64,000 bases of DNA from Eledone cirrhosa (lineage: Eukaryota): contig OZ024750.1 of assembly GCA_964016885.1 (NCBI GenBank), positions 10,354,001-10,418,000 of the forward strand, given 5' to 3'. The notes below the pieces were generated by a model. That model was not told the DNA's origin. It made no database searches and saw only the letters and a program-made list of their open reading frames with translations. The translations under genes and the position numbers were made by a program. Every line of letters starts with the position of its first letter. The stretch's first letter is position 1. Shown here piece after piece: positions 13,503 through 16,227 of the stretch.

Positions 13503-13714
13503 TAGGAAAATGTTCAAGACCCCGACGGCAGAGCTCCAGCCGTTTCGACGGCTATTTCTGGACTGAAATAGCGTCCAGAAATAGCCGTCGAAACGGCTTG
13601 AGCTCTGCCGTCGGGGTCTTGAACATTTTCCTATTACCCACTCTACTACCCAAAGTATTGAGTACTCTGGTGCGTTATGGTCCACCTGGTTCCTTACCAC
13701 ACTTCCTTCGTTTT
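13503..13714 (+). mobile_element. TA-inserted family A element with a 61-bp 5' inverted arm
   Basis: Arms 13503-13563 and 13573-13633 (1 mismatch), 9-nt loop; (TA)n on both sides. Confidence 0.9.
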
Positions 13715-14837
13715 ATATATATATATATAATATTTATTGTGTGTGTGCGTGTGTGTGTGTGTGTGTGTGTGTGTGCGTGTGTGTGTGTGTGTGTGTGTGT
13801 GTGTGTGTGTGTGTGTGTGTGTGCGTGTATGTGTGTGTGTGTGTGTGTGTGTGTGTGTGTGTGTGTGTGTTTATGAGCACCAGAGAATGAGAGATGGAGG
13901 GGGTGGGGTATAAGAAGTGAGAAGTAGTAAAATACGTGATTTAAATTTAACTAAGCCGGCACTGCAAAGGAAGTATAGTTAGTAGCAAGAGGGGGGAGGG
14001 GGCGGCGCGGTGTTGAAGGAAGAGGAGGGGGGGAGCAATGAGGGAGGATGAGGCGGAGCAATGAGGGAGGAGGAGGCGGAGGTGGGTCGGTGAGGGAGAA
14101 GGAGGCGGAGGCGGAGGAGAGGGTAGTGAGGGAAGATGAGGAGAGGCGTGTCCTATTGTTGTCTACTGACAGCTTAATGTTGGCTAAATATAGCGAATAA
14201 ATGGGAGGGAGAGAGAGAGAGAGAGAGAGAGAGAGAGAGAGAGAGAGAGAGAGAGAGAGAGAGAGGATAAGAGTTACATGGGAGGGGGAGATTTGTTGGC
14301 CAATAAGCGGGAAGGAGGGAGATTACAAGACGGAAAGTAACAAACTATAGAAATACTATTATTAGGGAGGCGGTGGAGGTGTAGAGGAGGAGTTTGAGGC
14401 GCTAGGGTTAGGGCGGATCAGATTTTGTATATGCATGTCTTATGTGTGCTTTTGTGTGTGTGTGTGTGTGTGTGTGTGTGTGCGTGCGTGCGTGTGTGTG
14501 CGTGCGCGTGTGTGTGTGCGTGCGCGCGTGTGTGTGTGTGTGTGTGTGTGTGTGTGTGTGTGTGTGTGCGCGCGTCTGTGTGTGTGTGTGTGTGTGTGTG
14601 CGTGCGTGCGCGTCTGTGTGTGTGTGTGTGTGTGTGTGCGCGTCTGTGTGTGTGTGTAGGAGGGATATGCGCATTGAGTGAAACGGTGTAAGATGTTGAA
14701 AACTAGGTTTGTTGCATGTTTAAAAGAGGTTGCGATGTGTGAAATACGGTTCCTTGGCGAAGATAGTTAGATAGATAGATAGATAGATAGATAGATAGAT
14801 AGATAGATAGGGAGGTAGGTAAGGGAGGTAGATAGAT

Positions 14838-14982
14838 ATCTTTATTTGCCACAGGGGCGTACAAAAATGGGACATTACAAGACGTGACGGCGGGGGTTTT
14901 ACATAAAAATCATATAACTTTAATAAATAACAATAAACTATATATAATAAAATAACAATTGAAATCCCCAATAGGGGGGAAC
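14838..14982 (-). mobile_element. Tx1-like LINE 3' UTR fragment inside (GATA)n
   Basis: Similar to 8113-8245 (CTTTATT.GCCACA...TTTACATA...ATCCCCAATAGGGGGG). Confidence 0.75.
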
Positions 14983-15034
14983 GTAGATAGATAAATAGAT
15001 AAATAAATAGATAAATAGATAGATAGGTAGATAT

Positions 15035-15120
15035 ATTTCTTTATTAGCCACAGGGGCACAAAAGAAGGGGACAAATATAAAGGGGGAAGTTTACATACAA
15101 TAAAAACGTATAAAAAATAT
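15035..15120 (-). mobile_element. Tx1-like LINE 3' UTR fragment inside (GATA)n
   Basis: Near-identical reverse complement of 5848-5935. Confidence 0.8.
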
Positions 15121-15659
15121 TATCACAGATAAATAGGTAGATAGGTAGATAGTAGACCAGTTGATACATACATATATCCATCCATACATATATCCATACA
15201 TACATACATACATACATACATACATCTATTCTATCCAGTTTAAAATTCCCCAAAGTTTACAAGAAAGGAAACTCCGAAAGGGACCATTAAACAAAACTGA
15301 CAATTATAAAAGACAATTATATAAAACAACCATTTTATGGCAATAATGTAAACCACAGGAATTAATTCTGTTTCTGAGAGAAACGTGAAGTGACATGAAA
15401 ATATAATTCTAGTGATAGAAGGTTTCTTATGAAATGAAGAACCAAGATCTGAATTCACTTAAATACACGATTAAAAGACACCAGAGCTTCCAGCTTGAAG
15501 CGGGTACTGCTTGAAATTGAGAATGAAGTCAAAAATACACACACACACACACACACACACACACACACACACACACACACACACACACACACACACACAC
15601 ACACACACACACACACACACACACACACACACACACACATTTATTTGTTTGTTTGTTTG

Positions 15660-16004
15660 TTCACCCCGTTATAGTCCAACTGGTTTCTTACCACATTTTC
15701 TTAGTTATATATATATATATATATATATATACATATATATATATCAGATAGGGTGTGGTAAAATACCAGGTGGACCATAACCCTCCAAAGTACTCGATAC
15801 TTGGATTTCAACAGAAACGGCCGGAGCTCAGCCGTCGGGGTCCTGAATCTTTTCCTATATATATATATATATATATAACAGAAAATGTGGTAAAACCCAG
15901 GTGGACCATAAGGCAGCAGAGTATTCGATACTTAGGGTAGTAGATCCGAATCTAGCTGCCGAAACAGCTGGAGCTCAGCCGTCGGGGTCCCGACTCTTTT
16001 CCTA
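15660..16004. mobile_element. Cluster of rearranged family A fragments
   Basis: 15660-15705 is a + strand 3' end. 15750-15803 (-) is joined to 15812-15856 (+), and 15880-15943 (-) to 15950-16004 (+). Units are separated by (TA)n. Confidence 0.8.
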
Positions 16005-16022
16005 TATATATATATATATATA

Positions 16023-16227
16023 TAGGAACCAGTAAGACCCCGACAGCTGAGCTCAAGCCGTTTCGACGGCTAATTCTGGACAGAATTAGTCCAGAATTAG
16101 CCGTCGAAACGGCTTGAGCTCAGCTGTCGGGGTCTTACTGGTTCCTATTACCCACTCTACTACTTCAAGTATTGAGTACTTTGGTGCGTTATGGTCCACC
16201 TGGTTCCTTACCACATTTCCTTCGTTA
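16023..16227 (+). mobile_element. TA-inserted family A element with a perfect 59-bp inverted arm
   Basis: Arms 16023-16081 and 16089-16147, loop AGAATTA. Confidence 0.9.

Follow-up and report, generated by a model that had tools for sequence, protein, structure and literature searches.

The window analyzed here is a stretch of 64,000 nucleotides of Eledone cirrhosa DNA (assembly GCA_964016885.1, contig OZ024750.1, positions 10,354,001 to 10,418,000), which is rich in microsatellites and has 46,287 bases lying outside them. It carries about 20 pieces of a SINE (22 matches at 19 loci), which we take to resemble octopus SINEs, as well as LINE fragments. One of the latter (20091-20624) matched 275 LINE-type reverse transcriptase (RT) proteins in a protein search; the 3' coding fragment at this site (20091-20747), presumably of an RTE-like LINE, contains an internal 135-bp duplication. 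A protein search with the minus-strand frame of a further, LINE-like fragment (8351-8764) retrieved no homologue; this fragment ends in a 12-bp fold-back (8726-8751) adjoining a GATA-type repeat, and one SINE copy breaks off at a 22-bp perfect fold-back (3704-3752). Other repeats include a degenerate AACCCT-type array that is like an interstitial telomere repeat (12352-12690), older imperfect inverted repeats of 77-87% identity (10082-10166, 42641-42702 and 54068-54230), and a 21-mer present as one inverted copy and then several tandem copies (25098-25234), a pattern that looks like iterative templated repair synthesis.

Flanked by the microsatellites are seven copies of a short insertion, family A, which we name by their approximate starting positions:

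13340-13474, plus strand: armless copy whose truncation point, a TA also present in the flank, lies 8 nt before GAAAC
13503-13563, minus strand: inverted arm of copy 13503, with its outer end fused to (TA)n and 1 mismatch in 59 against its own right arm
13564-13572, plus strand: loop of copy 13503, a direct repeat of 13578-13585
13573-13633, plus strand: right arm of copy 13503, the 5'-truncated body
13590-13612: possible 3' half of a type I hammerhead within this right arm (GAAAC, palindromic helix III, GTC)
13634-13712, plus strand: tail of copy 13503, about 80 nt, unpaired, with the fixed 3' end of the family at (TA)n
15667-15706, plus strand: tail-only copy (E=5e-5 in a profile search)
15750-15856, minus strand: copy with an inverted arm (15814-15856), a small hairpin junction and the distal tail (15750-15802)
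15880-16003, minus strand: copy with an inverted arm, a loop as in copy 22930, 5 nt of right arm and a tail
16022-16081, minus strand: inverted arm of copy 16023, a 60-bp exact match to its own right arm
16082-16088, plus strand: loop of copy 16023, a direct repeat of 16093-16099
16089-16226, plus strand: body and tail of copy 16023, with the right arm at 16089-16148
22929-23109, minus strand: copy 22930, body and tail complete, inverted arm degenerate

A profile search for more copies found none below E=0.37, and exact-pattern scans for stray copies, which covered prokaryotic genomes only, gave 0 and 0 matches. One 3' end is common to all seven copies and abuts or nearly abuts (TA)n in each, and the opposite side is truncated variably, down to 40 nt, with whole insertions measuring 40-210 nt. 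A fixed 3' end combined with variable 5' truncation is the pattern expected of target-primed reverse transcription, and the orientation of the family was assigned from it. An inverted arm is present in 5/7 copies and missing from 2/7, and all five arms have the same outer stop, TTTTCC or a local variant of it. The right arm is followed by an unpaired tail of 79-85 nt, so the palindrome lies short of the terminus. The inverted arm of copy 22930 shows a 9-nt deletion across an internal palindrome and 3 substitutions in 38, and copy 15880 lacks the right arm over the stretch between two TCTA motifs spaced 62 nt apart. A previous sequence-only reading had correctly described the armless copy (13341), the deleted-arm copy (22929-23109) and the two arm-plus-tail copies (15750-15856 and 15880-16003), and had omitted the tail-only seventh copy, the 79-85 nt tail and the common outer end of the arms. 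Four copies stand in a row at 15640-16230, separated only by (TA)n, which suggests repeated targeting of one tract.

The tails of different copies diverge at 5/79 to 14/79 sites, and the copies probably stem from several source elements. Within one subfamily the arm region has changed less than the tail (1/50 versus 13/78 differences, p=0.009), which fits a constrained RNA element together with several source copies. Head-to-tail units are absent from the window, as expected for copies truncated inside a pLTR. None of the copies, which are too short to reach an ORF, contains one; no reading frame is open in all four long copies, and coding potential of the tail found no support.

Hairpin arms and their grouping by locus

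The arms of hairpins 13503 and 16023 are 59-60 bp long with 1 and 0 mismatches, respectively; when the 46,287 non-microsatellite bases were shuffled 30 times, no comparable exact arm exceeded 18 bp. Both had been described as perfect palindromes, which holds for 16023 with its 60-bp exact match, whereas 13503 is only near-perfect, with a mismatch at 13537/13599. The inverted arm of 13503 differs from the arms of 16023 by 6-7 substitutions and a gap. The three differences between these hairpins named earlier are genuine, and the mirroring in both arms of the same copy, likewise claimed before, extends to all 7 differences between the two loci. In the 61 columns of the four-arm alignment, 8 group the arms by locus (6 substitutions plus one 2-nt gap), 0 by side and 0 crosswise, and 1 is private. 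The two quartets that include copy 22930 gave 7/0 and 8/0 columns by locus and by side, and a quartet from a second family in the window, family C, gave 6/0, its two copies having different inner breakpoints. Hence, in all four quartets (three of family A, which has only three loci with both arms, and one of family C) the arms group by locus and never by side. Both loops do repeat a piece of the right arm, as first read from the sequence: 13564-13572 corresponds to 13578-13585, and 16082-16088 with the next G corresponds to 16093-16100. The stretch so repeated is 7-8 nt in each and includes the base specific to that copy, and the loop at 13564-13572 is likely to be a templated insertion.

These data bear on the earlier proposal that the arm is regenerated in each insertion. 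The arms match their own copy, as the proposal holds; with several source elements probably behind the copies, a match by locus is not in itself proof of regeneration per insertion. The expected clustering by locus in a tree of arms was likewise recovered in part: the 16023 pair is resolved (support 95) and the 22930 arms remain unpaired, with support limited to the 16023 pair and two subfamilies (98).

MITEs and DIRS elements also display inverted repeats in a TA context, and DIRS elements are further marked by a tyrosine recombinase and an internal complementary region. With 0 columns by side, a single-master MITE is rejected, in agreement with the earlier view that the arm is not an inherited terminal inverted repeat. 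Descent from several MITE-like or DIRS-like masters with co-evolved arms would account for the fixing of both outer ends, the TA targets, and the same centre and similar loops of 13503 and 16023; an inverted repeat with a 3' extension also resembles DIRS ends. However, the family A arm is subterminal, optional and locus-matched, and truncation is one-sided, down to 40 nt, unlike in either class. Furthermore, near-identical arm sequence (1/50 and 1/42 differences) occurs in armless, deleted-arm and arm-plus-tail copies, the loop carries the variant of its own copy, and an insensitive Pfam scan of 134/191 candidate frames found no transposase or recombinase. We therefore regard inherited palindromes as very unlikely.

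Other families with inverted arms and hammerhead-type motifs

An inverted arm with a tail is also present in four other families of the window, making five families in all. These are families B (4 copies), C (2 copies), D and E, in each of which inverted arm, body and tail recur:

60214-60375, minus strand: family B copy (B60214) with a 37-bp perfect arm, body and a tail of about 80 nt
24588-24770 and 17584-17686: other family B copies (B24588 and B17584)
17104-17335: armless, unrearranged family B copy (B17100)
60387-60780, plus strand: family C copy with a complete hammerhead-type motif in both the inverted arm and the body, and a tail of about 100 nt
61568-61960: second family C copy
40297-40388, plus strand: family D palindrome (D40297) with a hammerhead-like core on both strands
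16608-16900, minus strand: family E copy, with 111 nt of inverted SINE sequence (16751-16861) breaking up its inverted arm

The recurrence of arms in five families, their ending at the same element position at independent loci, and the mismatches and deletions that they carry make a fold-back artefact of sequencing or assembly barely conceivable, even in a window that is very repeat-rich and known here from the assembly alone. The two deletions seen in inverted arms, of 9 nt in that of 22930 and of 11 nt in that of B24588, lie at small palindromes and may reflect error-prone arm synthesis. In family C the arm is separated from its partner by spacers of about 70 and 150 nt. The arms of B and C contain 5-11 TA dinucleotides each and yet end at about one family-specific position; hence their outer end appears to be set by the element. 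An arm merely stopping at the first TA is thus rejected for B and C, and such a stop is compatible with family A, whose arms hold only 1-2 TA sites.

At 16608-17097 the family E arm switches into inverted flanking SINE sequence and back, giving nested palindromes. The captured SINE piece is most similar to its neighbor at 16914-17023 (97.3%, the best of 19 other matches, the next reaching 95.5%), and one switch point has a 6-nt shared motif. This capture of the neighboring SINE points to arm synthesis at the target site, during insertion, and by analogy the same timing may apply to family A. It would be left unexplained if the arms had been homogenised after insertion, by arm-to-arm gene conversion or by template switching in replication. 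In favor of homogenisation, the tails of 13503 and 16023 differ at 5/79 sites and the arms at only 1/117 (Poisson p=0.005, if both derive from one source at the same time), a low arm divergence for which different source elements account equally well. Moreover, the inverted arms of 15880 and 16023, just 20 nt apart, differ at 8 positions and 2 gaps in 50, and the arms of 22930 stay unhomogenised. Homogenisation is accordingly a very unlikely explanation.

We also considered that the insertions have nothing to do with Penelope and belong to another SINE- or LINE-like element, whose 5' end snapped back in the course of generic repair. Short fold-backs do occur in the SINE at 3704-3752 and at the LINE-like end at 8726-8751, and snap-back junctions form a low-frequency class in R2 insertions (PMC11331408), in which the 5' junction receives cDNA or flank DNA as its reverse complement, as seen here. 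However, such repair would account neither for an outer end specific to each family nor for the unpaired tail and the high frequency of arms: R2 snap-backs are of low frequency and have no fixed end in the cited part of that work (PMC11331408), whereas here arms are in the majority and their outer end is fixed. Arms are found in 10/13 copies of families A, B and C versus a local inverted repeat at 3/19 SINE loci (Fisher p=0.0009), a contrast inflated by the fact that B and C were noticed via their palindromes. A generic snap-back is thus highly improbable in our estimate.

Complete hammerhead-type motifs are found in families C and D. A hammerhead descriptor matched family C at 60427-60483 (minus strand), 60583-60639 (plus) and 61773-61830 (plus), and a relative of family D at 61089-61130 also passed; against these 4 matches stand 0 in 100 shuffles. 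The best hammerhead match listed by Rfam is HH9 at 61076-61147 (14.6 bits, E=2); for the whole window, the 150 of 558 Rfam matches listed are driven by microsatellites and hairpins and fall below the curated thresholds. Isolated partial hammerhead-like motifs lie between microsatellites at 16404-16460 and 23310-23350. An element at 60848-61140 and 12975-13095 carries, on the minus strand, a pair of hammerhead-like motifs spaced by about 120 nt, together with a mismatched inverted arm and a tail resembling that of family A. The mismatched arms (61058-61140 and 12975-13095) were left out as evidence, since age, or a pair of separate insertions, might account for them. For the family A tail, the best match outside the family is the D-related element at 12975 (rank 1 of 2566 windows), a modest similarity reached by 1-53 of 2000 shuffles; the match to the 60850 copy is weak, with 145, 164 and 288 of 2000 shuffles for three tails (not significant) and 58 for the fourth. 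A palindrome at 60010-60079, with a loop repeating part of its arm and a CTGAAGA motif, has an end similar to family D.

The family A arm may itself read as the 3' half of a type I hammerhead. We keep this ribozyme reading as an inference because the 5' core is absent, the descriptor and Rfam are negative and folding prefers another hairpin. Specifically, family A lacks the CTGANGA core and has no descriptor match, no hammerhead is among the Rfam matches listed for 15745-16460, and the folded bodies show no excess stability over shuffles (z 0.09 to 1.05), with GAAA placed in a simple loop.

Probable affinities with Penelope-like elements and proposed formation of the inverted arm

Family A is likely to represent 5'-truncated ends (pLTR plus tail) of a Penelope-like retrotransposon (PLE). 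This membership follows from the layout, as no coding part is present. Endonuclease-bearing (EN+) PLEs encode a telomerase-like RT with a GIY-YIG endonuclease, carry direct or partially tandem pLTRs, have a pLTR and tail that overlap the start of the ORF, and favor AT-rich or microsatellite targets. The Pfam scan of 134/191 candidate frames, which gave only two weak unrelated matches, both on one low-complexity frame, contained no RT or GIY-YIG domain; it is an insensitive scan, since the real LINE fragment was missed too.

In known PLEs a truncated copy in inverted orientation adjoins a 5'-truncated body, the tail measures 30-40 bp and the targets are (TA)n; the origin of their tandem and inverted structures is termed undefined in the cited part of one account (PMC8557442). 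Palindromes at the inverted junctions have been described and, in 2013, were proposed to stem from self-priming, with antisense RNA and not cDNA as the template (PMC3846280). The family A insertions resemble the inverted pLTRs of EN+ PLEs (Penelope/Poseidon, Neptune, Nematis and Naiad) in that 1) a 5'-truncated body has an inverted 5'-truncated copy at its 5' end; 2) the tail is one-ended; 3) the inverted junction is palindromic; and 4) the targets are microsatellites, which hide target-site duplications. They differ from the published elements, as far as the cited parts describe them, in having no ORF, an insertion of 40-210 nt and a tail of 80-100 versus 30-40 nt (PMC8557442, PMC3846280). 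Minimal type I hammerheads are known from the pLTRs of metazoan PLEs, including pairs on opposite strands. In families C and D, as in these ribozymes, the core is present, helix II is preceded by an unpaired base, helix III is palindromic and motifs occur in pairs on opposite strands, whereas family A retains only GAAAC, palindrome and GTC, with a longer helix III (PMC4209133). Non-LTR retrozymes are likewise short, non-coding and tied to hammerheads and PLE pLTRs; they consist of head-to-tail tandem units with whole type I hammerheads, in contrast to the head-to-head, truncated family A (bioRxiv 10.64898/2026.07.22.740005; PMC7229834).

Mapping of the inversion breakpoints, as called for by the sequence-only reading, showed that they are not free: each family has a fixed outer end, and the inner ends gather at a native hairpin. 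Copies 13503 and 16023 turn at the identical base, 17 nt before GAAAC, and copies 22930 and 15880 have the identical small centre loop with the same short stem in the same orientation. When B24588 is compared with the unrearranged B17100, its centre falls, in sense orientation, on the region of helix II and its loop in the latter (15/19). Palindrome centres tend to sit at what is likely to be ribozyme helix II; elsewhere they lie near helix III (B60214), upstream of the core (D40297) or far upstream (family C). In all three cases with a retained centre loop (22930, 15880 and B24588) the loop reads in the orientation of the body, which matches, though weakly, the prediction from fold-back of the first cDNA.

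The suggestion made at the outset, that the arm is templated from the element itself at insertion, as for the inverted pLTRs of Penelope, is supported by these observations and is the best reading. In light of the non-random centres and the loops in body orientation we favor self-priming, often at helix II, and hold with moderate confidence that the insertions are PLE ends whose arm arose from self-priming of cDNA, with its outer end at the pLTR/tail boundary. The process would run as follows: 1) a GIY-YIG endonuclease would nick (TA)n and the RT would prime at the tail end, giving the common 3' end. 2) cDNA synthesis would halt early, often at the hairpin that is the would-be helix II of the pLTR hammerhead. 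3) The 3' end of the cDNA would prime itself and copy the sequence just made, short slips producing the templated loops. 4) The arm, whose fixed end is observed, would terminate at the element-defined pLTR/tail boundary, probably by an endonuclease cut or at a proximal RT start site, and would then be joined to the other flank. 5) Some palindromes would lose the right arm, for example between the two TCTA motifs of copy 15880. Fold-back alone does not explain the fixed outer end, and the spacers of about 70 and 150 nt in family C are awkward for it.

In L1 twin priming, too, the 5' junction comes to carry cDNA or flank DNA in reverse complement, and a Penelope-like version of this mechanism is a strong rival. 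Both target strands would be nicked and two cDNAs made from two RT start sites, the distal one giving body and tail and the proximal one the arm, to be joined head to head by microhomology or by the ribozyme hairpin. This gives a direct account of the fixed outer end, better than self-priming does, and it accommodates the long spacers of family C as well as the arm-plus-tail copies (15750, 15880 and B17584). The anole Poseidon protein cuts and extends both strands, its RT has two start sites, shown in vitro, that bound the tail, and it is predicted to be a dimer (PMC11167929). Against twin priming, if weakly, is the body orientation of the centre loop in 3/3 cases. In addition, the two cDNAs would need to terminate at one and the same base in 13503 and again in 16023, and the loop of 15880 implies that the body cDNA reached the loop and that the right arm was lost between the TCTA repeats. 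Copy 15880 was therefore dropped as proof of twin priming, as its loop orientation and TCTA repeats fit fold-back plus deletion. On balance we consider twin priming possible but less likely than self-priming.

Returning to self-priming, we tentatively suggest a more specific form of it, which we consider possible though doubtful: the pLTR hammerhead might act as a built-in fold-back primer, with helix II of the cDNA self-priming the arm, which would be cut or started at the fixed pLTR/tail boundary. The inverted-arm layout itself is not new, being a known property of PLEs; possible additions to the known picture are the longer tails and the clustering of palindrome centres at helix II. Among titles and abstract openings, mostly without subscription papers and older Penelope work, none ties the inversion centre to ribozyme helix II and none applies twin priming to Penelope, a silence that is weak evidence of novelty as most of those papers lay outside the search.

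Hairpins of this kind are open to misannotation as MITEs or as microRNA precursors; the microRNA matches among those listed by Rfam for the window are sub-threshold. Where both arms of a short copy are visible, sequence alone can tell the two main models apart, the discriminating features being arm-to-body concordance, loop orientation and the position of the centre. The role of the Penelope ribozyme has been termed unclear (PMC11167929). If the hammerhead does serve as a fold-back primer, these poorly cleaving ribozymes would have a structural role in integration, and such very short, abundant copies would offer a natural dataset on how the inverted repeats of Penelope form.
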